Source of the DNA: Bacilli bacterium | GTDB taxonomy: Bacteria; Bacillota_I; Bacilli_A; RFN20; CAG-826 | Assembly (NCBI GenBank): GCA_041669225.1 | Contig: JBAYBO010000001.1 | Span: 1 to 43,092 of the forward strand | Reading direction: 5' to 3' | DNA: 43,092 bases | Shown here: piece after piece, positions 10,152 through 35,671 of the stretch | Layout: each line of letters begins with the position of its first letter | How positions within the stretch are numbered: the stretch's first letter is position 1 | Notes under the pieces: model-generated | The model's input: only the letters and a program-made list of their open reading frames with translations | Databases searched by the model: none | What the model was told of the DNA's origin: nothing | Program-made: the position numbers and the translations under genes

Positions 10152-10996
10152 GAGAATTGAACTTTAAAGGAACCACTCCTATTCTCTACATCATCGCCAC
10201 TCCCATCGGAAATCTCAGTGAGATGACTCCGCGGGCTTTAGAAATAATTAAGGAAATGGATTATATCGCTTGTGAAGATACACGTGTATCAGGAAAGCTA
10301 TTAAACCATTTTGAGATACAAAAACCTTTGGTTTCTTGCCGCGAACACAATGAAATATCTGGGGCGATCCGAATTATTAATGACTTAAAAAACGGTCAGA
10401 AGGTAGCATATCTTTCTGACGCCGGTTACCCTTCGATATCCGATCCCGGAAACCGTTTAGTCAATGAGGCTTTAGCAAGCGGTATCAAGGTATCAGTTAT
10501 TTCTGGCGCCAACGCCCTCATAAATGCATTAGTCGGTTCTGGATTAAACACTGAGCGATTTTATTTTCATGGGTTTTTGTCCCCGAAAGAGAAAGTTCGC
10601 CAAGAAGAGCTACGTAGTTTATTCAAGCGCCGCGAAACGCTTATTTTTTATGAAGCTCCACACCGCGTTTTAAAAACACTTGCGGACATGGTTAAAATTT
10701 TTGGCAACCGCAAGGCTTGTTTAGCGCGCGAACTGACAAAAAAACACGAAGAATTCATTCGAATGAATTTGATTGATTTATCAATGTTAGATAAAGAGAC
10801 TTTAAAGGGAGAGATGGTTCTTGTCATTGAAGGTAATAACGAAGAACTCGCCCCGCACATCAATGATGACGAGGTCCACAAAATGATATCCAACCTCATC
10901 GATATCGGCGTGACACCAAAAGATGCCATTAAGCAAGTAAGCGACTTACTGAAGTTAGCAAAAAATCACGTCTACAAAATTTATCACCGCAACTAA
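10148..10996 (+). CDS. rsmI: 16S rRNA (cytidine1402-2'-O)-methyltransferase
   Basis: Tetrapyrrole-methylase-fold N-terminus TPIGNLSEMTPRALEI...ACEDTR. ATGA start/stop overlap with ricT. Confidence 0.9.
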   Translation: MRELNFKGTTPILYIIATPIGNLSEMTPRALEIIKEMDYIACEDTRVSGKLLNHFEIQKPLVSCREHNEISGAIRIINDLKNGQKVAYLSDAGYPSISDPGNRLVNEALASGIKVSVISGANALINALVGSGLNTERFYFHGFLSPKEKVRQEELRSLFKRRETLIFYEAPHRVLKTLADMVKIFGNRKACLARELTKKHEEFIRMNLIDLSMLDKETLKGEMVLVIEGNNEELAPHINDDEVHKMISNLIDIGVTPKDAIKQVSDLLKLAKNHVYKIYHRN

Positions 10997-11014
10997 CGCC
11001 CTAAGGGCGTTTTT
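10996..11014 (+). terminator. Rho-independent terminator of the dnaX...rsmI unit
   Basis: ACGCCC-TAA-GGGCGT hairpin (10996-11010) followed by TTTT. It overlaps the stop codons of both convergent genes (rsmI TAA 10994-10996; yfhO-like TAG 11001-11003). Confidence 0.7.
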
Positions 11015-14000
11015 CATTTTCTAAATTTTCGAGTTTGATTTTCTTTTTTAAATCAAGAAAGGCGCCCAATCCAATTGCGCCCCCAAAGATTACGAAGCCG
11101 CTAAAAGCAATAACCAAACCTTCATTAAAATAAGGAGTGACGTATTTCATCTCGTAAGAGGTCGCGCCAGCTTTGGATACAAATCCGACAAAACCACCTT
11201 GGGCGTTATATGTTTTTAACTGCTCCTTATCGCCGTTTACGCCTTTTGCAAATACTTTCCAGCCATCACCGTAAGTAACTTGCGTGACGATAAAACGCTC
11301 CATGGGGAAATCACTTTTAAACGAGAAGTAATTAATGTCATAAATAACATCAGTTAAAGGATACTCGTTCAAAACCGCGAGCTTATTCAGGATATGATCA
11401 TATGTTTCAACATAAATCTCGCTATAGTTATAAACAACTCCATTCCCGGCTGGGACAATAATAACCTTTTTGACTGGTTCACTCGCGTAAAAGCCACGGA
11501 AATACTTTTTATCAGCTTCGTTGTTATTATGATAATCAGTTGTAATTACGCGACTTGTTGTCGGATCAGGGTTGCCTTCTTCATCGATGCCATCACCAAT
11601 TAAATAAATTCTTCCCCGGTAATCGGTATTTGGCATTTTAAGTGGATATTTAATCATGAAGTAAGAGGGCTCGGTTGTCAGGTAGCTTCCGCTTGAAGGA
11701 GTTAAGACAAGCTGCGTTTTATCACCGACGACGCGGTCTGCCGCTTCTGAAAAGGGGAAAGTTTCGTAATCATCCAAATAACGATCCGGTTGGCGGGGTT
11801 GGAAAAAGAAATCGGTATCGTACAAGGTGCGATTAATGCTAAGTTTACTTGCTTCCAAAGTCGGTGCGTTTTTCGGCAAAAAATGCGGATGCTCGGATAT
11901 TATTTCTAAGACGTCTTCGTCTTCTAAAATAGCTCCTTTTAAGTAGGCTTCCTCATTGCGAATAACATCGAAAGAGTGGTTCCCACTCGTATGAAAGTCG
12001 TTAAAGATGCGATTACCGCAACTTCGTTTGTAATATAAAGTGTCGAAACTAAAACCGAGTTCGACATGATTATCATTTTGGTATAGACGATAACCATCAC
12101 CGTCATTTTCATCATCGATACGCGTATATCCAAGGGGGGCGTTCATATCAATGACATAACTTTTCTGAACATCATTTTCCGTATAATAAAAAGTTGTTTC
12201 CGTTTCTTTAAATAAATAATATTTAACACCGAGAAAAGCATCGAGATTGTAGCGCTTTTCCTGCGCGCCACCAATCCAAGAAGTGTCGTGTTTAAAAATA
12301 TGGGACATTCTAACAAAATCGATGACATCATAGTTATAAAGAGAGTGAAATGTTGAGGTACCATTAAAGTTTTCGACGTTGGGAAGGTTATCATTACTTA
12401 GATAAGCTCTTGTTGATTGAAGACGGAAAAAACCATCGTCGCTTTCATTAACTTCTTGAATGATTTTTGTTTCGGTAACATAGTTATTAAACCCTCCACT
12501 AAGACTTCGTTCGTAGGAAATAACGCCATGACCGACCATAACCATATTACCCATCACAACTGCTTCAAGAGCAAGAGTGACGGTTAGTATTTTCGTAAGC
12601 CGTTCTTTTTTCCAGTTAAAGAAAAGAATAAGCCCAGTAATCATGCAGACGACTATTTGGTAAAAGAAAATCCAATACTCGCCTTCGTAGGGTCGTATTT
12701 GTTCAGAAACAATTTTCGAAACAAGACTATAAGCAACTAACATTAAGGTCAATGTCGAAATAAACGACACTAAGGCGTAGCCGGCTGGTATTTCTTTTCG
12801 TTCATCGAAATTTAGAGCCACATAAACAAGTATCGATACAACGGCAATGATTTGCCAACGGCTGTAAGGAACGGTAAAAACGTGCATGGCGTGATAGAAG
12901 AAAGGTGTAAATAAAGCAAAAATGAAAAATCCAATCGGAATAAAATGCGAAAACTTTTTCTTGCGAATCGAATTAAAAACGGAAACGAAAAGCATCATAA
13001 TGCTTGGCGTAAAAATGAAAATACTTCCAGCGAAGTTTTCAAAAGAAGTCACGGGAATCAAATTAACATATCGCCCAGAGATTGTCGGAAATAAAAACGA
13101 AACCAGCGGATATAAGACGCGGTATTCGGCGATTTCACTCTTATTATTTTTGCCCCAGTAATTAAGAATTAAATATTTAAGTTCGTCCCAATCGCGATTA
13201 ATAAAGGCCTCACGAAGGTCAAGAAGATAAGTTGCATCTTCAGCTCGAGGCGCTTGCATGGCGTTGATATAATTGGGAATCAAAATCCAGGCCGCCACCA
13301 TTAAGGCCACGGCAAAAGCGCCGACACCCCAACCAAGAATAATCCAGTTTTCTTTGCGTGTGTGTTGTTTGCGAAGCTGAAAAAAGCGAAATAGAGCATA
13401 TGCCACACCATAAAAACATATTGTGATAAGCAGGAAATAATGAGTAATCGCTATCAAAAATAAGCCAACAATCAAGGTATATGGCTTTTCGCGGTGAAGG
13501 ACCTTTTCGATGCCTAATAAAACAAGCGGGAAAAAAGCAATAACTTCAAAAAAGTTATTAAACCATAAATAATAAGCAATCCAGCCACAGAAGGCATAGG
13601 CAATTGCAAATAGGCGAGCCGTTCCTTCTTTGACGTCAAAGTGTTTTAAATAGAGGCGAAAGAAAAGACCGCCGACAACCATTCTGGCAATCATCGTTAC
13701 AGCGAGAAGATGGGGAATGAAATAACGAGGAAATAAAAGCATCGGAAGCATAAATGGCGAGAAGAGACCATAATAAGTGTTTGAGGTAATATTATCTGCG
13801 CCCAAAAAGGTATTGTGATCCCACATGACAAATTTACCGGTTTTAAAAAATGTCCACCAATCATCATAAAAGTTATAATGAAAGGCGACATATTGCTGTG
13901 TGTAGTCGCCGCCTAAAGGAACGCTGAAGTACTGCGTTAAAAGCGAATAACCATAAAAGCCAAGCCCGATAGCAACAAGAAACAATGTATAATAAAAAAG

Positions 14001-14650: not shown

Positions 14651-14953
14651 TCAAAGACCGACAGTATGACTGACAGGCATCGAAAAAGCGATGCCTTTTC
14701 CATTTGTTTCAAGACCCGCAGCTTTATTAATGGCCTTTAAAACCGCTTCTTTAATTTCCTCTTCGACGAGGATGATCACGATTTCTTTTTCTGGGGAAAT
14801 GGAGAAACCAAAAAACTTTTCCATATCGGGATTCCCGGTTCCGCGACCGTGGAAAATCGTTCCACCTCGCGCCCCTTCTTTTCGGGCGGCATCCATCACT
14901 AAATCAGTGAAACCATTATTGACAATACAAATGATTACTTCGTGTTTTCCCAT
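14651..14953 (-). CDS. PII-like signal-transduction protein (short T-loop)
   Basis: 100 aa with a beta-alpha-beta PII-type core. A GRGTG segment replaces the long T-loop, and the C-terminal GKGIAFSMPV is equivalent to the GlnB GDGKIFV region. A GGAGA SD lies upstream, and the gene starts 2 nt after the upstream stop. Confidence 0.75.
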   Translation of the reverse strand: MGKHEVIICIVNNGFTDLVMDAARKEGARGGTIFHGRGTGNPDMEKFFGFSISPEKEIVIILVEEEIKEAVLKAINKAAGLETNGKGIAFSMPVSHTVGL

Positions 14954-14955
14954 AA

Positions 14956-15378
14956 TTAATCTCCTATCGTTCTTGTGTTAGACAAATATTTGTAAATTGA
15001 TAAACCTATAACCGAGGATATTTCGATTGAAAAAGCTATTCCTTTGCTTTCTTTTTTAAAGAAAACAGCAATATCCTTTTTTAATGCTTCTATTTTATCG
15101 GCTTTTACTATAGAAAAAACGATATCTTTCCGCACATCGCTAAGACCGAGCAAGTCATAAATTTCTCTTGTGCCCGTCCCTCTTCCACGAGTGATGATGC
15201 CAAGCCCGCTTTCATGTGCTTTCAAAATTCTCAAAACCTCTCTAGCGTGATTTTGATTAACAATCGTGATAAAAAATTTAAGTCGCGAAACTGAATTCGT
15301 CTTATCGTAAGGTTTGAACTTTGCCGGCGGATTAGATGCTGGTAAGGTCGTAATGTTTTCTATTTTTCTCTTGCTCAT
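14956..15378 (-). CDS. PII-like signal-transduction protein with ~35-aa N-terminal extension
   Basis: 140 aa and a paralogue of 14651..14953 (GRGTGT, SKGIAFSIEISSV). Its ATG overlaps the upstream TGA (ATGA at 15375-15378). Confidence 0.7.
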   Translation of the reverse strand: MSKRKIENITTLPASNPPAKFKPYDKTNSVSRLKFFITIVNQNHAREVLRILKAHESGLGIITRGRGTGTREIYDLLGLSDVRKDIVFSIVKADKIEALKKDIAVFFKKESKGIAFSIEISSVIGLSIYKYLSNTRTIGD

Positions 15379-16922
15379 TGCTCACCCTCAATTAAGTGAA
15401 TAATTTGATCGTCGTTTTCTTCAAAGAAACGAACTCTCGCCAATTTGATACGTCTTTGTTCTTTTATGGTCACATAAAGACCTAGTGCTTGAATCGTAAT
15501 AATAGGCATCATTGTTACTAAAGCGTTAACTCCGAAGGCATAAGTCATTATATCTTGTCCCGAGCTTTGATAAAAGGTGATGGCTGCTCCAATCGCAAAA
15601 GGCAAAACAAATGAGGAGTTCATCGGTCCGCTTGTAATGCGACCGGCATCAAAGGCCATCGCCGAATAAAATTTTGGGACAAAAAAGGCCAAAACTAAAG
15701 CAACAAAATATCCGCCAATAACAAACCAAAGAATGGGTATGCCTAACACAAGCCGCATCATCGCAAACGACATCGCAAGACCGGCACCAATCGCAATCGC
15801 AATCAAGACGGCAACTTTGCGAATCGCACCTTCAGTAATATTTTCTATTTGCGAGACTAAAACATGAATTGCTGGTTCAAGAAGAACGGCAGCCATTCCA
15901 ATAATCGCACCAAAAAGAATAACTAATCCTGATCCTCCAATAGCCATTTTACTTCCAATAATCCGACTAATTGGCAAAAAACCTAAATTTACTGCTGACA
16001 GAAAAATCACAAGGCCTAAATACGTATAAACAAGACCGGAAATTATTCTAATCAACACTTTAAGAGGTAGGTGTATAGCTATTGCTTGATAAATGAAAAA
16101 GAATGCAGTAATCGGCAAAATCGCGATTGCAACATTTAATACACTTGTCACCAAAATCCCGCCAAAAGACTGTGCGGCTTCCACTTCGTAAATAAAGGGA
16201 ATATCATCTATGAAAAAGGACATGATTAACACAACGAGGACTGGACCCAACGATGTAAGGGCGATTAAGCCAAAAGAATCCTCGTCAGTCTTTTTGCCAG
16301 AACGCGTCGTGGCAATACCAATGCCAAGGGCAAGAATGAACGGAACGGTAATCGTTCCTGCCGATGCTCCGCCAATATCAAAGGATAGAGGTATAAATGA
16401 AGGATTAACATAGTTAATACCAAGAGCTAAAGCAAATAAAAGACCATATAGCATGATGAGCCATATGATCAAGTTTTTTTGAAAGAGAATGCGCAATATT
16501 CCAACGACCATAAAGACACCAAAACCAACACCAATCAAAATAATAATGAGCCATTCATTGCTAATAAACGGCAACCATTGATTGCCAAGAGGAACTTGAC
16601 CAACCAGAACTCTTAAATCTGGCTCGGCAATAACGATGAAGGCACCAAGCAAAAAGAAAAGAAAAACCATTAATCCGATTTTTCTTTGACTAGTAATAGA
16701 GGCACCAATATATTCTCCGATTGGTGACATGGCCATATCCGTGCCAATCGTAAAAAATCCCATTCCTAAGGCGACCATGACGGCCGAGACAGAAAAAATA
16801 ATGACATCTTTATTGTTATCAATTCGAGCTAGACCACTAAAATGAATAATCAAAACGATCACGACCATCGGAAGCGTCGAGACAAAAGCCGATTTGAATT
16901 TGTGAAGCCAACTAAAAGACAT
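15375..16922 (-). CDS. Polytopic membrane protein with internal duplication (DUF1538-like putative transporter)
   Basis: 515 aa and highly hydrophobic. The two halves are homologous (AEPDLRVLVGQV vs LEPAIHVLVSQI; FDIGGASAGTITVPFILALGIGIA vs FDAGRITSGPMNSSFVLPFAIGAA). The family name is from memory and needs HMM confirmation. Confidence 0.7.
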   Translation of the reverse strand: MSFSWLHKFKSAFVSTLPMVVIVLIIHFSGLARIDNNKDVIIFSVSAVMVALGMGFFTIGTDMAMSPIGEYIGASITSQRKIGLMVFLFFLLGAFIVIAEPDLRVLVGQVPLGNQWLPFISNEWLIIILIGVGFGVFMVVGILRILFQKNLIIWLIMLYGLLFALALGINYVNPSFIPLSFDIGGASAGTITVPFILALGIGIATTRSGKKTDEDSFGLIALTSLGPVLVVLIMSFFIDDIPFIYEVEAAQSFGGILVTSVLNVAIAILPITAFFFIYQAIAIHLPLKVLIRIISGLVYTYLGLVIFLSAVNLGFLPISRIIGSKMAIGGSGLVILFGAIIGMAAVLLEPAIHVLVSQIENITEGAIRKVAVLIAIAIGAGLAMSFAMMRLVLGIPILWFVIGGYFVALVLAFFVPKFYSAMAFDAGRITSGPMNSSFVLPFAIGAAITFYQSSGQDIMTYAFGVNALVTMMPIITIQALGLYVTIKEQRRIKLARVRFFEENDDQIIHLIEGEQ

Positions 16923-25897: not shown

Positions 25898-26812
25898 CTA
25901 CTTCGAGAAATCAGTGAGAAAGAATTCGGCCATCGCCTCATTCGTCCTTTTCCCTTCTTTACTATCCGGCAAAACGAGATTATAGACATGAGCAACTTTC
26001 ATATCGAGGGATGGTTCAAATTGATAATGATGTGGTATTTCCTGTCTCAATAATTCATCGTGTAGCATAAAACTGTGTTTCTTTAGAAAGTCATAGTGAC
26101 AAGAAGAAACAAAAATCGGGTCTGGTTTTACCTTTTTAATATAGTAGGCCGGATTATTCATTTTCAAAAATTCTCCATCTAGATAATTGCTAGAAAAAAG
26201 GGTAGGCATCGCTGACTTATGAATAATGCGCTTAGCATATTCAGCGACTTCTTCAAAATCATACACCGCACAATTCATACCAACACATTTGATTTTGATA
26301 TTTGGTAGACGGTCAATTCTATAATATCTTTGTGCTTCTTTTGATTTAAAGACGAAATCGGTAAGAAGAGCAAGATGGCCACCGGAAGAATCGCCAAGAA
26401 GAATAAAATTATCAAAAAATAAGTCATATTTTTCTTTGTTTTTTTCAAGAAAATTCAAGGCGGTGAAAATATCAACAATTTGCTCATAGATACTCGTTCC
26501 TTTTTTTACGAGAGTGTAATTAATCGAAACAACTGAAAAACCTTTCGCAACAAAATATGAATTGAAAATGTAATTAAGACCTTTGTAACCAAAGGCATAT
26601 GAGCCACCGTGAATATCAAAAATAAGATGGTTGTTACTTTTCGCCGTTGGATGATAAATATCGAGAAGATGCTCAACATTGCCGTCGTCAACGTAAGGAA
26701 TGTCTTTCCAAACCCGCATTTCGGTGAATGGTTTCATCTTCTTGATGCGCTTGGCTTCGTAGATATCTAAAGTGCGCTTAAAAATTTTTAATGAGGGACG
26801 GAAGATAAACAT
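25898..26812 (-). CDS. Alpha/beta hydrolase (esterase/lipase-like)
   Basis: HGGSY oxyanion region and the GDSSGGH nucleophile elbow. A strong AAGGAGGTGA SD lies upstream. Confidence 0.75.
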   Translation of the reverse strand: MFIFRPSLKIFKRTLDIYEAKRIKKMKPFTEMRVWKDIPYVDDGNVEHLLDIYHPTAKSNNHLIFDIHGGSYAFGYKGLNYIFNSYFVAKGFSVVSINYTLVKKGTSIYEQIVDIFTALNFLEKNKEKYDLFFDNFILLGDSSGGHLALLTDFVFKSKEAQRYYRIDRLPNIKIKCVGMNCAVYDFEEVAEYAKRIIHKSAMPTLFSSNYLDGEFLKMNNPAYYIKKVKPDPIFVSSCHYDFLKKHSFMLHDELLRQEIPHHYQFEPSLDMKVAHVYNLVLPDSKEGKRTNEAMAEFFLTDFSK

Positions 26813-26890: not shown

Positions 26891-27379
26891 TTATTTTCTT
26901 TCGCGTATTTTTTGTGAGATAAACTCAGCTAAACCTTCAGGAACATATGGGGAGATGTCAGCATTAAAAAGGGCTAACTCTTTGATGTATGAAGCTGATA
27001 TGAAAAGATTATGACTCGATGGAAACATGACTAAAGTCTCAATGTTTGGATCACTCGTGTGGTTAAATTGAAACATCGTAATTTCGTTTTGATAGTCATT
27101 GACGTTTCTGACGCCGCGAATAATGACGCCCTCTTCTTTTTGACGAACATAATCAACAAGGATGAGATCGCTTTTTTCGATAACGACGTTTTTAATGTGG
27201 GCCGTTGCTTTTTTAAGCATTTCGACGCGTTCATCGGCCGTAAAAACATAATGCTTGTTTGGATTAACGGCCACCACCACAAAAATTGTTTCAAATAGTC
27301 GGGCGATGCGCTCGATGATGTCGATGTGTCCATTGGATACTGGATCAAAAGATCCGGGATAAATTGCTTTCTTAATCAT
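26891..27379 (-). CDS. coaD: Phosphopantetheine adenylyltransferase
   Basis: AIYPGSFDPVSNGHIDII (T/HxGH motif). 162 aa with a typical CoaD C-terminus. Confidence 0.93.
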   Translation of the reverse strand: MIKKAIYPGSFDPVSNGHIDIIERIARLFETIFVVVAVNPNKHYVFTADERVEMLKKATAHIKNVVIEKSDLILVDYVRQKEEGVIIRGVRNVNDYQNEITMFQFNHTSDPNIETLVMFPSSHNLFISASYIKELALFNADISPYVPEGLAEFISQKIRERK

Positions 27380-30753: not shown

Positions 30754-32265
30754 CTAATTCCAAGGATTAGGAGCGCTCGCTTCGATAAATTGTTGATACA
30801 TGACATGGCGTTGGAAAATATCAGCGTCAGTGTGAATTATACTAGTATAATAGTTTTGCTCTCGATTATTAATAATATAAGTCGATGTAACAATTTGATA
30901 CATGTCATTATCCTCTAATGAGTATTTATTAAGCCCATCAATGAAAATGGTCAATGTTCCCCAAAGTTCCAACTGTTTTCCAGTTGCTTCGACTATTACC
31001 GTAGCATTATCAAAGGGGAAAGCTTTATACACATCAGCGTATGTAATATCACCGACATTCCATGCCGACCGTGATTCATTATACGATGAGCCAATAATGT
31101 CATAAGATTCAGAATAGGCATCCAATTGTGCTTGAAGGAACATTTGCTGAACGCTCAGTTTGCTAATTGTGCCGTCAATCGAAGCAAAGATAGAATCACT
31201 ATTAATCTCACCAATTTTATCGTTTTTCAGGGCGCGGAGACTTTCACTTTGAACGGGTCCATCCTGAGCGGGAGCATCTAAATAAGCATCATAAATGCTT
31301 TGCACAGCTTCATCTTCAACAAGTGTTATGCTTCCGTTTAAAAGATTCGTGTTTTTATAACCATTCAATGAATAGGATTCCTTGGCAGAATCATAAATGA
31401 ATTCGACCTCGCCAATCGCGCGACCATTCGACGAAGATTCGATTATCGGTACCGATTTAAAATCCGAATTTTTCATCGTCAGAACGGAATTATGATGGCT
31501 ATGTCCAGTAAAAATCGCGTCAACATAATCAGCGATTGATTTATCAACGCGTTTATCAACATCATGAGTTGAGTAAATGATAATATCAGAACCGGCTTGA
31601 CGAAGCCTTTGGGCTTCAGAGATGACCATTGAGGTGGCGTTGACAAATTCATAGCCCTCGACAATCGGACCGTCAATGGAATCATAAACGCCGTTATCAA
31701 TCGAACCGATAACACTAACGCGAGCAGGTCCGCGATTAAAAGTCGTTGATAGATAACCAAAATCATATTGACCTTCAGGATTTAAAATGTTTCCTGATAA
31801 GAAGGGAAAAGACCAATCTCCTTCCTCTTTGTTCATGGCGTAGGCGGCATTTTCTTTTAAAACATCAACGCCCCAGTCAAATTCATGATTGCCGATTGAC
31901 ATCGAATCAAAGCGCATTTCTTTCATGATATCTATCATGAGTTTTCCTTGGCTGATGTTTGAATCGAGACTTCCTTGAAACATGTCGCCCGAAGAAACAA
32001 GAACGACATTCGTATTCGCTTGTTCCCGTATGGTATTAACATAACCAGCTAAATAAGCCATGCCGGGTTCATTATCGTCTGGGCGATACTCAATTGAACC
32101 GTGTGTGTCATTAAGATGCAAAATCTTGATAATATCCCCGCTTTGAGGATCACCACTTTTTTGTTCATTATTTGGATCGGTAACGACCGGCGCCGCGGTC
32201 AGTTCACCATCACAACCAACTAATGCAAGAGCCAAAAGCGGTAAAAGTAAGATAATTTTCTTCAT
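30754..32265 (-). CDS. Lipoprotein, bifunctional metallophosphatase/5'-nucleotidase family
   Basis: Signal peptide with lipobox LALALVGC. Calcineurin-like motifs HLNDTHG, GDMFQGS, GNHEFD and GHSHH, followed by a 5'-nucleotidase C-terminal-type domain. Confidence 0.85.
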   Translation of the reverse strand: MKKIILLLPLLALALVGCDGELTAAPVVTDPNNEQKSGDPQSGDIIKILHLNDTHGSIEYRPDDNEPGMAYLAGYVNTIREQANTNVVLVSSGDMFQGSLDSNISQGKLMIDIMKEMRFDSMSIGNHEFDWGVDVLKENAAYAMNKEEGDWSFPFLSGNILNPEGQYDFGYLSTTFNRGPARVSVIGSIDNGVYDSIDGPIVEGYEFVNATSMVISEAQRLRQAGSDIIIYSTHDVDKRVDKSIADYVDAIFTGHSHHNSVLTMKNSDFKSVPIIESSSNGRAIGEVEFIYDSAKESYSLNGYKNTNLLNGSITLVEDEAVQSIYDAYLDAPAQDGPVQSESLRALKNDKIGEINSDSIFASIDGTISKLSVQQMFLQAQLDAYSESYDIIGSSYNESRSAWNVGDITYADVYKAFPFDNATVIVEATGKQLELWGTLTIFIDGLNKYSLEDNDMYQIVTSTYIINNREQNYYTSIIHTDADIFQRHVMYQQFIEASAPNPWN

Positions 32266-32603
32266 TTATTTCTCCTATTAGAATATTTTTCTCCATATGT
32301 TGTTTTAGCTACCAGTTTTGCGTTATTTAACGAACCACCGACAAGAAATAATTTAATTGTCGCCGGACAACACAATAAACCAGCGACGCTAACTTCTAAT
32401 TTTGGCAAATCTTCATTGACAGTTCGAATCGAAAAGCGAGTATCTTCATTAATTTCGAACTGGGCGGATTTCTGACCTTTAATCACACCAACGATTTCAC
32501 CATTAAAAAGAATTTCGACTTTAATATCACCGATCCATGTCGTCTGATCAGGACCAATAATGGTCACAAGTGAAGTTTCTGGGTGTTGATATTTCATATT
32601 CAT
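32262..32603 (-). CDS. Hypothetical small cytoplasmic protein
   Basis: 113 aa and beta-rich, with no recognisable motif. Its TGA overlaps the ATG of the nucleotidase gene (ATGA, 32262-32265). Confidence 0.5.
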   Translation of the reverse strand: MNMKYQHPETSLVTIIGPDQTTWIGDIKVEILFNGEIVGVIKGQKSAQFEINEDTRFSIRTVNEDLPKLEVSVAGLLCCPATIKLFLVGGSLNNAKLVAKTTYGEKYSNRRNK

Positions 32604-32609
32604 ATTCTA

Positions 32610-33338
32610 CTAGATATGGAACCTTCTTCCAAATTCCTTTGCAACAAGCTTAGGAGCAAAAATAACAAAAAACAGCAACGTAAGGAAGGAAAAAGAAGAG
32701 GCTGCAATCGACATAAATAGAGAGCCCAAAATATCTGGACCAAAGATATCAATCAAAATTAGGACAAAGGGTATAAATCCGATAAACGATAATGAGAACT
32801 GAGCGATGACATAATCATGCAGACGATGCCTCTGTGAGAGCATGGCGATATTAATCGCCAATATAAAAAGCATTAATGTCGCCGGCATCGCATAATCAAG
32901 TGACCATTTAGCAATTTCCGAAAAGTTTTCTAAAAAAAGTGAAGAAGTCATTGAAGGTGAGGCGGTCACAAAATTGATGACGATTAAAAGAGCGGAAAGG
33001 CCAATCGCGTGCAATAAGAGTTTTTGACCAAGGTGATCGGTTCTCCGCACCGTATAAAGACCAACTAACCAAGCATATAAGATTGCCACTCCAACAATTA
33101 ATGACCACAAGAAACCGTTCCAGGTTAGAAGGTTAATTAAAACACAAACGCCAATTGCCACAGGGGCGGCTATCGAAATGCCACGCGCCCATCTTTTTCG
33201 TAAATTAATAAACTTAATATATGATGGAAAAGGTTTTTTGGAGGCTGGTTCATCTCCGTGCTCGACTGGTCCATGGCAAAGAGGGCATTTCTCGCCTTTT
33301 GAAACGATATTAACTTTACAATCAGGACAAAAATCCAT
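32610..33338 (-). CDS. Zinc-ribbon membrane protein (DUF6320-like)
   Basis: 242 aa counted from ATG 33338. A GGGAGGAGG SD lies 9 nt upstream, inside the end of the preceding gene. N-terminal CPDC...CPLCHG zinc ribbon followed by about 5 TM helices. The family name is from memory. Confidence 0.65.
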   Translation of the reverse strand: MDFCPDCKVNIVSKGEKCPLCHGPVEHGDEPASKKPFPSYIKFINLRKRWARGISIAAPVAIGVCVLINLLTWNGFLWSLIVGVAILYAWLVGLYTVRRTDHLGQKLLLHAIGLSALLIVINFVTASPSMTSSLFLENFSEIAKWSLDYAMPATLMLFILAINIAMLSQRHRLHDYVIAQFSLSFIGFIPFVLILIDIFGPDILGSLFMSIAASSFSFLTLLFFVIFAPKLVAKEFGRRFHI

Positions 33339-33339
33339 C

Positions 33340-34635
33340 TTAAGCGACCTCCTCCCAGTAATTACTTTCAACTTCCACTTCTAATCCTAAATTAACTAAA
33401 TTACGAAAAAGTTGCATTGGAAGCAGCGTGTCGCGTGTCTCGCGAAGAACACTAATTGTCAAAATGTTATTAAAAGTAATGACACCGATTCCAAACGCGC
33501 AGTTGATATCGTTTGATAAGTTAAATTCAAAATCTTGAACATGTTCAGCCATCGACTGCGGAAGTTGAACAATACCAATGTTTGACATAGTCAAAGTGTT
33601 GAGTCTTCCCCCATACTTTGTCCCAGCAATAGTCATCGCGGGTTTTTTAAGAAATAAAGGGGTGAGGCGCATCGCCATATTTCGTTCGGCTTGCATATTA
33701 ACATTAATGTTTTCAACGATGCTTTCTTTTGAAAGACCTTCGCTAAAACTTTTTTTCACCTGCGTAAGTATTTCATCAAATTCTCCGCGCTTATCATCCT
33801 TCACAGTCGTGTGAAAGAAGAGAGTGAAGTTGCGAAGCGATTCTGATGGAAATAGACGTCGAAGGTTAATTGGTATACAAATATTAACACGATTATTTTT
33901 AATCATTCTCTCGCCGTACACTTGATAGACGGTTTGGGTTAATAAGGCTGAAAGATATTCGGTTACAGTCGCGTTATACTGCTTGGCCAAAGCATGTAAA
34001 GCGTTCGAATCAAGACGGCCATTAATAACACCGCGTCCTTGACCGCTTGGAAAGCGGGCATCTTTAATACTAAATGGAGTGGGGACAACATAGCGTTTAT
34101 GAGGATTCATCGTGGCGTATTTAAAGAAACTATCTTCCAATTCTTCGATTGATGGATCTTGGTCGACCGTTAAAACCAAGCCTTCGCTTTCCAAGTGATG
34201 ACCTTTTAATTCAAGATAACGATAAGTAAGGGCTTTTAAAAAAACGACTGCTCCGGTTCCGTCGGTTAAACTATGAAAAACTTCTAAACTAATCCGCTTT
34301 TCATAATAAAACACCGTAAAGCGAAAATAGTTATTACTATAATAGTCAATTGATTTGTTAATGCGACTATCTTCAGGGCGAACACGCGCCATTTTTTTAT
34401 TTTCTTCAAGATAATACCAAAAAACACCGTGCCGGACTCGCACAAACATCGCTGGAAAACGACTGCGCATATCGAGTAATGCCCGCTGCAAAACGTAAGG
34501 ATCAACCTCTTCTTTAAGATTAATCGCAAAACGAAATACACAGCTATTGCGACGACTTACCATCGCTGGATAAATTTTTGCGGCGTTATCTAAACGATAC
34601 CAATCTTGATTAATGCCATTAATTTTATTCTTCAT
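33340..34635 (-). CDS. HxxxDG acyltransferase of the condensation / alcohol-acetyltransferase / WS-DGAT-PapA5-like superfamily
   Basis: About 431 aa. N-terminus WYRLDNAAKIYPA and catalytic-type motif FHSLTDGTG (HxxxDG). The start is either ATG 34635 or GTG 34656. Confidence 0.65.
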   Translation of the reverse strand: MKNKINGINQDWYRLDNAAKIYPAMVSRRNSCVFRFAINLKEEVDPYVLQRALLDMRSRFPAMFVRVRHGVFWYYLEENKKMARVRPEDSRINKSIDYYSNNYFRFTVFYYEKRISLEVFHSLTDGTGAVVFLKALTYRYLELKGHHLESEGLVLTVDQDPSIEELEDSFFKYATMNPHKRYVVPTPFSIKDARFPSGQGRGVINGRLDSNALHALAKQYNATVTEYLSALLTQTVYQVYGERMIKNNRVNICIPINLRRLFPSESLRNFTLFFHTTVKDDKRGEFDEILTQVKKSFSEGLSKESIVENINVNMQAERNMAMRLTPLFLKKPAMTIAGTKYGGRLNTLTMSNIGIVQLPQSMAEHVQDFEFNLSNDINCAFGIGVITFNNILTISVLRETRDTLLPMQLFRNLVNLGLEVEVESNYWEEVA

Positions 34636-34642
34636 TTTTATC

Positions 34643-34660
34643 AGTCGTGTTAACACGACT
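34643..34660. repeat. Perfect 18-bp palindrome AGTCGTGTTAACACGACT
   Basis: Read directly from the sequence. It lies in the 61-nt spacer between the esterase stop (34697) and acyltransferase ATG (34635). No U-tract follows on the transcribed strand. Confidence 0.9.
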
Positions 34661-34696
34661 CGTTCATACTATACGTGATTGAGGACAATTCGTAAA

Positions 34697-35671
34697 TCAT
34701 TTTGCTAAGCGGAAGGCACGAGATAACGCCGAGATTCGCTTGGACATTACCTTTTGAACGAGCTTTTTGCCTTGCATAATATCAAAAGCATGAAACGCTC
34801 CTTCAATATAATTAAGTTCGACTTTAATACCGTTATTTTCAAGTTTCTTGGCATACTCAATGGCCTCATCGCGAAGGCAATCGTACTGACTTGGTTCGAT
34901 ATATGCGGGTGGGAGATTTTCGAAACAAGTTGAAACCGAAGGAGAAGCATATGAAAGCATGCCAAAATGACCATCTTGAAGATAAATTTTCCACATTTGC
35001 TTATTAAGCAAAGAATTCCATCCTGGTGCATCGAAATATTTTTTTATCGAGGCTGTTTTCTGTCGGTGATCAAGGGCTGGATAAATTAACATCTGAAAGC
35101 AGATTTTTGGACCTGAACGGTCACGGCTCATGTGTGTCATTGCCGCGGCAAGACCGCCACCGGCACTATCACCAGCAACCGCGATGCGATTTTTATCGAT
35201 GCCAAGACGTTTAGCGTTTCGGCAAACCCATAACAGGGCCGAATAACAATCTTCCACCGGATAAGGAAAAGAATATTTGGGAGCAAGCCGATAATGAACA
35301 AAAATAACTTTGGCCTTAGCTCCGTCTGCGTAGTCGCGGCTAACTTTATGATGATGACTCGCTTCTCGAATCATGAAACCGCCTCCATGTAAATACAAAA
35401 TGGCGGGGGCTTTTTCCTTTTCTATGTTTTTTGGCTCATAAATCGTTAACCGGATGGTTTTTCCGTCATAAGAGCGGATTCGTTTTTTGATCGTCCTAAC
35501 ACGCAGGTCAAGAACCGGGGCTTGTGTTGTAATCGCGGCGCCAGTATTACTCAGAGCAATTTTAACAGGCGTAATTTTTATCGAACCTAAAGTCATGAAG
35601 CGGGCGTAATCCTTCAACTCATCGGCAATCTGATATTTCTTATTCCAGGCGTCTGATACAATAGGTGCCAT
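34697..35671 (-). CDS. Alpha/beta-hydrolase fold-3 esterase/lipase (hormone-sensitive-lipase family)
   Basis: HGGGF oxyanion motif, GDSAGGG nucleophile elbow, and late Asp/His (CLRDE, FHAFD). A GAGGAA SD lies upstream. Confidence 0.85.
   Translation of the reverse strand: MAPIVSDAWNKKYQIADELKDYARFMTLGSIKITPVKIALSNTGAAITTQAPVLDLRVRTIKKRIRSYDGKTIRLTIYEPKNIEKEKAPAILYLHGGGFMIREASHHHKVSRDYADGAKAKVIFVHYRLAPKYSFPYPVEDCYSALLWVCRNAKRLGIDKNRIAVAGDSAGGGLAAAMTHMSRDRSGPKICFQMLIYPALDHRQKTASIKKYFDAPGWNSLLNKQMWKIYLQDGHFGMLSYASPSVSTCFENLPPAYIEPSQYDCLRDEAIEYAKKLENNGIKVELNYIEGAFHAFDIMQGKKLVQKVMSKRISALSRAFRLAK

Follow-up and report, generated by a model that had tools for sequence, protein, structure and literature searches.

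The window analysed here is a 43,092-nucleotide stretch of DNA (positions 1 to 43,092 of contig JBAYBO010000001.1, GenBank assembly GCA_041669225.1) from a Bacilli bacterium of the GTDB lineage Bacteria; Bacillota_I; Bacilli_A; RFN20; CAG-826. The genome is available as a 1.08-Mb Bacilli metagenome-assembled genome (MAG) that is 88% complete. At positions 30754-35671 the window contains five co-directional genes that encode, in the order of transcription, an esterase, an acyltransferase (AT), a membrane protein of the DUF6320 family, a protein of 113 amino acids and a 5'-nucleotidase lipoprotein. An initial annotation, made from the letters of the sequence, had listed these genes with their motifs, and both the open reading frame (ORF) listing and direct reading of the sequence confirm them, all on the minus strand (Table 1). 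At the center of the locus is the AT gene followed by the DUF6320 gene, which is a near-obligate, strongly conserved and hitherto undescribed pair.

The junctions between the genes are also as they had been described. A 61-nt spacer with a perfect palindrome of 18 nt separates the esterase and AT genes, the ATG of the DUF6320 gene (33338) is 1 nt past the AT stop codon TAA (33342-33340) with a Shine-Dalgarno-like sequence in the AT coding end, and the ORF for the 113-aa protein begins after a gap of 6 nt and runs into the nucleotidase gene through an ATGA overlap. The ORF listing also gives a longer AT frame that starts from a GTG at 34656, which is inside the palindrome.

Table 1. Genes and sequence elements of the esterase-acyltransferase-DUF6320 locus, with positions in the window.
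Feature	Position	Strand	Description
Hormone-sensitive lipase (HSL)-family (family IV) esterase	34697-35671	minus	324 aa, predicted cytoplasmic; Abhydrolase_3; facultative third module part
Promoter-like site TTTACG-17-TATAGT	34668-34696	minus	Predicted from consensus scan and genus footprint
Perfect 18-nt palindrome AGTCGTGTTAACACGACT	34643-34660		From sequence reading; candidate operator or 5'-terminal mRNA hairpin
Acyltransferase (AT)	33340-34635	minus	431 aa from ATG; condensation/CAT fold, HSLTDG; core module part
Putative Shine-Dalgarno sequence GGGAGGAGG for the DUF6320 gene	33348-33356	minus	From sequence; within the AT 3' coding end
DUF6320 membrane partner	32610-33338	minus	242 aa from ATG; PF19845; core module part
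113-aa (or 111-aa) orphan	32262-32603	minus	Predicted cytoplasmic; genus-specific; outside the conserved module
5'-nucleotidase/calcineurin-like phosphoesterase lipoprotein	30754-32265	minus	503 aa; local neighbour, outside the conserved module

Conservation of the AT-DUF6320 pair

The distribution of the genes was determined in 41 related genomes, in an even sample of 399 Bacilli genomes, in a scan of species-representative genomes that contained at least 590 AT loci, and in a pool of 119 AT genes from 117 dereplicated loci, mostly from Bacilli and Clostridia. Ten other genomes among the 41 relatives have a complete AT locus, and every one of them carries DUF6320 directly downstream; one more AT is cut by a contig end, and one genome has distant paralogues only. 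The 399 Bacilli genomes gave 55 matches to the AT and 49 to DUF6320; in 47 cases the two are neighbours on one strand, the AT coming first, and approximately 13% of the sampled Bacilli genomes carry the pair. Of the loci in the species-representative scan (at least 590), the 80 best belong to Oscillospiraceae, Christensenellaceae, Ruminococcus, Lachnospiraceae, Clostridium, Izemoplasmatales, Acholeplasmataceae and one Spirochaetia MAG.

Of the 119 pooled AT genes, 94 are directly followed by DUF6320 on the same strand and two encode a fusion with it. DUF6320 is absent from 20, and in the remaining three the contig leaves no room for it. Between the AT stop codon and the start of DUF6320 there are 2.5 nt at the median, and no more than 20 nt in 53 of 62 pairs, a spacing typical of translational coupling. 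The pairing of an acyltransferase with a zinc-ribbon membrane protein had been put forward as one without a described function, and this has held up, in that the co-occurrence is real and the literature search returned nothing on DUF6320.

Few other genes travel with the pair. When approximately 1,500 neighbour proteins from the 117 loci were clustered, no family besides the AT, DUF6320 and the esterase was found in more than 15 loci, the next largest being generic ATP-binding cassette ATPases. No polyketide synthase (PKS), nonribosomal peptide synthetase (NRPS), adenylation, carrier, thioesterase or ligase genes accompany the pair in these approximately 117 loci. The AT and DUF6320, with or without the esterase, are a self-contained unit, and the other neighbours vary freely between lineages. 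Six loci (L010, L011, L022, L047, L068 and L128) also encode a PlsC-type acyltransferase (PF01553, 370-440 aa) at most a few genes away from the pair, which adds a weak hint of a lipid context.

The acyltransferase

The HSLTDG motif occupies residues 121-126 of the AT (window 34275-34258). H121 and D125 are invariant among 21 homologues that are 36-81% identical, as is an N-terminal signature, W-x-x-LDNAAKIYP. In Pfam the AT matches AATase (PF07247) with 28.6 bits, above the cut-off of 22, but the alignment is limited to model positions 281-468 of 500 and leaves out the N-terminal lobe that bears HxxxD. PapA_C (PF16911) scores 21.4 bits, under its cut-off of 30. Neither Pfam Condensation (PF00668) nor the wax ester synthase/diacylglycerol acyltransferase (WS/DGAT) families match at E<=0.01, and no NCBIfam model matches the AT. 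A search of Protein Data Bank (PDB) sequences with the AT family profile at E<=1 returned two chance-level matches only, with PapA5 not among them. The literature on COG4908 consisted of a single irrelevant mention, and that on PF07247 of plant, fungal and yeast contexts only.

The AlphaFold model of the AT, made from 21 sequences, has a predicted local distance difference test score (pLDDT) of 87 and a predicted TM-score (pTM) of 0.89, and shows a two-lobed condensation/CAT fold. Foldseek with this model gave matches at E 1e-14 to 1e-17, with 11-15% identity and TM-scores of 0.5-0.65, to NRPS condensation (C) domains, AzeD, PapA5, the BAHD enzyme HCT, TRI3 and a mannosylerythritol-lipid acyltransferase. 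There were 252 PDB matches at E<=0.001, and the top 50 listed are all C domains, PapA5, BAHD, TRI3 or similar. The modelled fold and the HxxxD motif together place the AT in the CAT/condensation-fold acyltransferase superfamily. Grouping of the AT with a well-characterised family would have counted against the initial annotation, but no close characterised relative was seen by Pfam, NCBIfam, the PDB profile search or Foldseek. From its sequence the AT appears to be an undescribed variant inside a known enzyme superfamily, with an undescribed partner.

The fold alone fits more than one chemistry. The AT could be amide-forming and N-acylate an amine such as an amino acid, a polyamine or an amino lipid, with DUF6320 helping to insert or export the product. 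TomBC, SrfA-C and LgrA are among the top fold matches (E approximately 1e-16 to 1e-17), and some sources label homologues of the AT as 'NRPS condensation-like uncharacterized protein'. However, PapA5, HCT and TRI3 fit about equally well (E approximately 1e-14 to 1e-15) with TM-scores that are equal or higher, and in Pfam the only families recovered are the O-acyltransferase families AATase and PapA_C, with no Condensation match at E<=0.01. Nor does an adenylation or carrier gene occur with the pair; an adenylation-thiolation (A-T) didomain gene found elsewhere in the genome does not follow the AT in its distribution over related genomes, and the enzyme that recurs with the pair is an esterase whose family is known to hydrolyse carboxyl esters. 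N-acylation is therefore an unlikely activity for the AT, and ester formation is the chemistry that we favor below.

One or two in-frame TAG codons were reported in the AT matches G372:C60:13554-14834 and G263:C71:26872-28155, from two genomes of one Bacilli family. ORF calling gave full-length frames at both loci, so the reported codons may be alignment overhangs.

The DUF6320 membrane partner

The label 'DUF6320-like' that had been given to the membrane protein is right, as PF19845 matches with 119.4 bits against a cut-off of 29.9 and over the full length of the model (1-186 of 186). The N-terminus carries a Cys4 ribbon motif, C4xxC7...C18xxC21. About five transmembrane (TM) helices had been counted originally; the structural model, made from 30 sequences (pLDDT 86, pTM 0.73), shows six, at residues 46-71, 78-97, 103-126, 144-168, 170-195 and 204-227, with the zinc ribbon at 1-25 and a C-terminal amphipathic helix that ends in RRFHI. 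Since lysine and arginine residues are confined to the N-terminal part, to 98-102, to 166-172 and to the tail, the protein is predicted to be N-in/C-in, with the ribbon and the tail in the cytoplasm. The four cysteines and P152 are invariant in 30 homologues, and P38, W78 and W145 are nearly so. A PDB fold search with the model found nothing at E<=0.001, the top matches being 14-3-3 proteins with a TM-score of approximately 0.2, which is meaningless.

Fusions give an indication of what the ribbon may do. The AT-DUF6320 fusion in L050 is 666 aa long and keeps the ribbon; Pfam finds PapA_C (32.6 bits, which passes the cut-off of 30), AATase and DUF6320 in it. Two other fusions, in L034 (638 aa) and P0053 (631 aa), are without the zinc ribbon and keep the YP motif before the first helix. 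There is also a sub-lineage (L011, L032 and L040) in which an AT with an extra N-terminal segment of approximately 90 aa, with no Pfam match, is paired with a ribbon-less DUF6320. The loss of the ribbon in two of three fusions and in this sub-lineage fits the ribbon being a docking element.

A polytopic membrane protein with a cytoplasmic zinc-binding N-terminus also resembles the architecture of anti-sigma proteins. DUF6320 could on this basis be a regulator, an anti-sigma-like membrane sensor that sequesters the AT through its zinc ribbon and releases or activates it upon a membrane signal, and the lack of any conserved catalytic-looking polar residue in its helices is in keeping with such a role. 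On the other hand, permanent fusion of the AT to DUF6320 is easier to reconcile with constitutive tethering than with regulated release, two of the three fusions have lost the ribbon, and there is no conserved sigma factor or regulator gene nearby. We regard a regulatory DUF6320 as improbable and a membrane tether as the better explanation.

The esterase as an optional third component

The esterase matches Abhydrolase_3 with E=8e-59 and 199 bits, and has the full catalytic set of motifs: HGGG at 95, GDSAG at 167, DCLRDE at 264 (D264) and FHAF at 293 (H294). With all of the family features found in its sequence, it is assigned to the hormone-sensitive-lipase family IV, or Abhydrolase_3. The LipP1-type HSL model of NCBIfam matches at 2.7e-69, under that model's cut-off, and none of the NCBIfam equivalog cut-offs for LipP1, chloramphenicol hydrolase or Aes is reached, so no subfamily is assigned. 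Say1_Mug180 (PF10340) does not match the window esterase at E<=0.01. On reading the N-termini of the AT and the esterase no signal peptide was seen in either, and for this reason both are expected to be in the cytoplasm.

The initial annotation had treated the esterase as a partner in the module, and it proves to be a genuine, recurrent one. Of 115 AT genes, 29 have a homologue of it next to them, fused to them or nearby: directly upstream on the same strand in 20, fused in five, adjacent but divergent in two and nearby in two. The five fusions are single frames of 722-755 aa from five genomes (L087, L094, L104, L110 and L123). In one of these, from an Oscillibacter MAG (L110), Pfam identifies Abhydrolase_3 at 7e-49 and the esterase domain scores 50.4 bits on Say1_Mug180, where the cut-off is 21. 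Two loci (L033 and L048) have a gene of the pectin-acetylesterase family (PAE, PF03283, with a GDSAGG motif) directly after DUF6320; here a non-homologous esterase occupies a module partner's position.

Mapping on the AT tree requires a minimum of 11-14 gains or losses of the esterase link, compared to a mean of 24 with shuffled labels; the link is thus inherited in clades, yet has been gained or lost many times. The AT of the window groups with two genomes of the same family in which the esterase adjoins the AT but is divergent. As there are only two Abhydrolase_3 genes in the window genome, both of them in this window, a chance adjacency of esterase and AT is unlikely. The conservation of AT and DUF6320, the recurrence of the esterase, the fusions and the tree mapping together lead us to conclude that the esterase, the AT and DUF6320 are one functional unit, in which the esterase is optional and is found in about a quarter of lineages.

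The second hydrolase is encoded at 25898-26812 on the minus strand, 4 kb from the module, and adjoins a cytidylyltransferase-like gene (26891-27379). This alpha/beta hydrolase matches BD-FAE at 1e-25 and Abhydrolase_3 at 2.7e-10, and is borderline for Say1_Mug180, with 20.6 bits against the cut-off of 21.

The 113-aa protein and the nucleotidase

The 113-aa protein had been reported to have no motif, and it has no Pfam or NCBIfam match. A word-based search found 13 relatives, all at least 56% identical, and a profile search of 1.84 billion representatives gave two clusters under E=1e-10. The gene is confined to loci of the genus, where it is highly conserved, and its product is a genus-restricted orphan and a lineage-specific passenger.

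The last gene carries Metallophos and 5_nucleotid_C domains, both above the Pfam cut-off, the metal-binding motifs NDTHG, GDMF and GNHEF, and a lipobox, LVGC, at residues 15-18 (Cys18). NCBIfam gives UshA- and CpdB-like matches, all under cut-off. Judged by its domains and lipobox, the product is a predicted 5'-nucleotidase or UshA-type metallophosphoesterase lipoprotein. Outside the genus a homologue lies near the pair in only 2 of approximately 110 loci (L018 and L023), and the nucleotidase is a local neighbour and lineage-specific passenger.

The five genes had been presented as a single, tightly coupled cluster, and on that reading acylation or lipid remodelling would be one pathway coupled to the 113-aa protein and an extracellular nucleotidase. 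The four downstream genes do lie close together, with gaps of 1 nt and 6 nt and the ATGA overlap, and five other species of the genus share their arrangement. However, what is syntenic in those five species is a whole block of 11 genes, from a short-chain dehydrogenase/reductase (SDR) gene to two kinase genes, and linkage within the genus is for this reason unspecific and uninformative. Outside the genus there is no 113-aa gene and essentially no homologue of it, and nucleotidase homologues near the pair are scarce; this distribution of the two genes largely refutes the pathway. We consider a five-gene pathway highly improbable. The proposed combination of a forward enzyme, a reverse enzyme and a membrane partner remains the best reading of the esterase, AT and DUF6320, and does not extend to the five-gene cluster, since the 113-aa gene is restricted to the genus and the nucleotidase is linked by genus-level synteny.

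A putative regulatory element before the AT gene

The promoter-like site begins right after the esterase stop codon and has 9 of 12 consensus matches; it was found by a consensus scan, and its function is only predicted. The -10 hexamer is followed by 7 nt, the palindrome, another 7 nt and the AT start codon. Four of five relatives from the genus retain the -35 hexamer; the -10 hexamer is exact in four of the five and has one change in the other, and the spacers vary. The 7-nt arms of the palindrome are invariant in these relatives and its central 4 nt are variable. Such a pattern in the hexamers and arms is a phylogenetic footprint of a putative regulatory element before the AT gene.

The genome holds no second copy of the palindrome at up to 3 mismatches, and none was found ahead of AT genes from other genera, whose inverted repeats are mostly terminator-like. 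A repeated operator was rejected on these two grounds. The palindrome could act as an operator overlapping the start of the transcript, or as a stabilising hairpin at the 5' end of the transcript. The presence of the promoter-like element and the palindrome between the two genes means that the esterase may be transcribed separately from the AT. There is no convincing terminator between the five genes, terminator-like sites being at chance level.

Genome context

No ketoacyl synthase gene (PF00109) was found in the 88%-complete genome, which has four DegV/FakB genes and one acyl carrier protein (ACP) gene. This suggests that the host may be a fatty-acid scavenger that depends on exogenous fatty acids, with the caveat that the genome is incomplete. 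The window itself is rich in genes related to envelope lipids: YfhO, a set of MarR, GT2, PlsC and VTT (DedA-type) genes, the cytidylyltransferase, a 3-beta-hydroxysteroid dehydrogenase-like SDR with DUF3810, and the second alpha/beta hydrolase.

The lipid economy of the host bears on the possibility that the AT is a WS/DGAT-like storage synthase, making wax esters or triacylglycerol, with the esterase as the mobilising lipase and DUF6320 as an anchor to the membrane or to lipid bodies. HxxxDG chemistry is shared with such enzymes, and in mycobacteria HSL-type lipases are encoded beside Tgs-type acyltransferases. However, there is no WS/DGAT match in Pfam at E<=0.01 and the AT has a single histidine, FHSLTDG, rather than HHxxxDG. 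The hosts are anaerobes with small genomes, and in this 88%-complete genome the lack of a ketoacyl synthase match and the four DegV/FakB genes suggest scavenging, not a surplus that could be stored. For storage, a synthase fused to its own lipase would also be odd. A storage function thus seems quite improbable, and a role in the membrane is to be preferred.

A 668-aa didomain gene (AMP-binding and PP-binding) lies on contig 3 of the window genome at 10170-12173 (L132:5171-7177), adjoining cysteine-synthase-like and hexapeptide-transferase genes, and is conserved in the family. This A-T didomain protein was considered as a dedicated acyl donor and rejected, its distribution over the 41 relatives not following that of the AT.

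A proposed membrane-docked acylation and deacylation module

Taking together the gene order, motifs, folds, conservation of the pair, recurrence of the esterase, fusions and predicted topology, we consider it somewhat more probable than otherwise that the three proteins form a membrane-docked module that adds acyl groups to a lipophilic alcohol on the inner side of the membrane and removes them again. DUF6320, with its six helices, would hold the AT at the cytoplasmic membrane face, with the zinc ribbon as the docking element and possibly the C-terminal K/R-F-H tail as well. The dyad H121/D125 of the AT would then move an acyl group from a thioester donor, either acyl-coenzyme A (acyl-CoA) or acyl-ACP, to the hydroxyl of the acceptor, which makes an ester rather than an amide the probable product. 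The acceptor would be lipophilic and resident in the membrane, and the helices of DUF6320 may present it to the AT or carry the product away. The cytoplasmic esterase could remove the same ester or a competing one, giving a cycle of acylation and deacylation that would serve editing or remodelling. In the genus of the window, the AT, DUF6320, 113-aa and nucleotidase genes are packed behind their own promoter-like site and palindrome. The variability of the neighbours and the lack of carrier, ligase and PKS genes argue for common donors and for an acceptor that is membrane-resident or exogenous.

Several observations weigh against this interpretation. Approximately 17% of AT genes are without a DUF6320 neighbour, and in Izemoplasmatales and relatives (L037, L038 and L061) there is a high-scoring AT paralogue, with E approximately 1e-150 to the family profile, that likewise lacks one. 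That paralogue is followed by a DUF1538-type membrane protein and a PII-like protein, and such a pair is also encoded at 14651-16922 of the window. Three quarters of the loci have no esterase, which indicates that it is not essential; where the forward and reverse enzymes are in one polypeptide the outcome could be a futile cycle. Alternatively, the esterase may serve to prepare the acceptor or may hydrolyse some other ester. In the fold search the AT is matched best by the amide-forming NRPS condensation domains, which would suit N-acylation. No invariant polar residue occurs within the DUF6320 helices of 30 homologues, and a transport or catalytic role for them is unsupported because of this. 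The ribbon is a candidate dock on the basis of the fusion patterns, and the literature search found DUF6320 mentioned nowhere.

Comparison with known systems

The functionally closest system is the sterol acetylation-deacetylation cycle of yeast Atf2 and Say1 (PF07247 and PF10340). In both systems an HxxxD alcohol acyltransferase is paired with a deacylase of the HSL/AADAC type, and the substrate of Atf2/Say1 is a membrane lipid. The AATase cut-off is passed by the window AT, and that of Say1_Mug180 by the esterase domain of the L110 fusion. There are also clear differences, in that the AATase match covers the C-terminal half only, the window esterase has no Say1_Mug180 match, and the bacterial system is probably cytoplasm-facing and has a zinc-ribbon partner with six helices for which there is no yeast counterpart; a link to sterols is only hypothetical here.

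A more specific form of this comparison would make the module the bacterial counterpart of Atf2/Say1, acylating and deacylating sterols, bile acids or similar exogenous polycyclic alcohols, and in gut Clostridia such as Christensenella it could then be the enzyme behind 3-O-acylated bile acids. Christensenella MAGs L095 and L104 do carry the module, L104 as an esterase-AT fusion, and in this 1-Mb fatty-acid-scavenging genome it would handle lipids scavenged from the host or the environment. For 3-O-acylated bile acids the enzyme is identified only in Bacteroides uniformis, according to a 2025 review (PMC12345280), and two reviews name no Christensenella enzyme. We hold this steroid-type function to be an improbable extension of the membrane-docked module.

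In structure and in context the closest enzymes are the mycobacterial PapA-type free-standing acyltransferases. PapA5-type enzymes are free-standing O-acyltransferases that esterify envelope lipids and work with membrane partners or transporters. PapA5 (PDB 1q9j) shares the condensation fold with the AT (Foldseek E approximately 5e-15, TM-score 0.54-0.61), and there is the weak PapA_C match. The two differ in that identity is only 11-12%, the AT has no PKS or MmpL context, and its partner is the small DUF6320 rather than a resistance-nodulation-division (RND) transporter.

NRPS C domains and their stand-alone relatives (TomBC, 8rz6; SrfA-C, 8f7f; AzeD, 8s6l) have the same two-lobed fold and HxxxD, with E values of 1e-16 to 1e-17 and TM-scores up to 0.65, for AzeD. 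Unlike them, the AT has no Pfam Condensation match, no carrier, adenylation or thioesterase genes nearby, a motif with a single histidine and its own N-terminal signature. WS/DGAT enzymes share HxxxDG with the AT and catalyse acyl-CoA-dependent ester formation at the membrane, but differ in that the AT does not match their family, has the single histidine, and comes from a different gene context and host biology.

Implications

For annotation, three of the five genes belong together, and proximity to them is no basis for annotating the nucleotidase or the small ORF. What the window adds is an instance of the module in a very small and probably fatty-acid-auxotrophic Bacilli genome, with a promoter-like site and palindrome that are conserved in the genus; further additions are the pattern of ribbon loss in fusions and the case of replacement by a non-homologous esterase.

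The pair is present in hundreds of Bacillota species, including Oscillospiraceae and Christensenellaceae of the human gut and organisms with very small, Acholeplasma-like genomes. It combines a known catalytic fold with a membrane partner that has no known fold and often with a deacylase, sometimes in one polypeptide. Solving the module would give DUF6320 a function and establish a new mode of tethering for a soluble acyltransferase at the membrane, and could reveal new bacterial ester lipids or acylated host metabolites.

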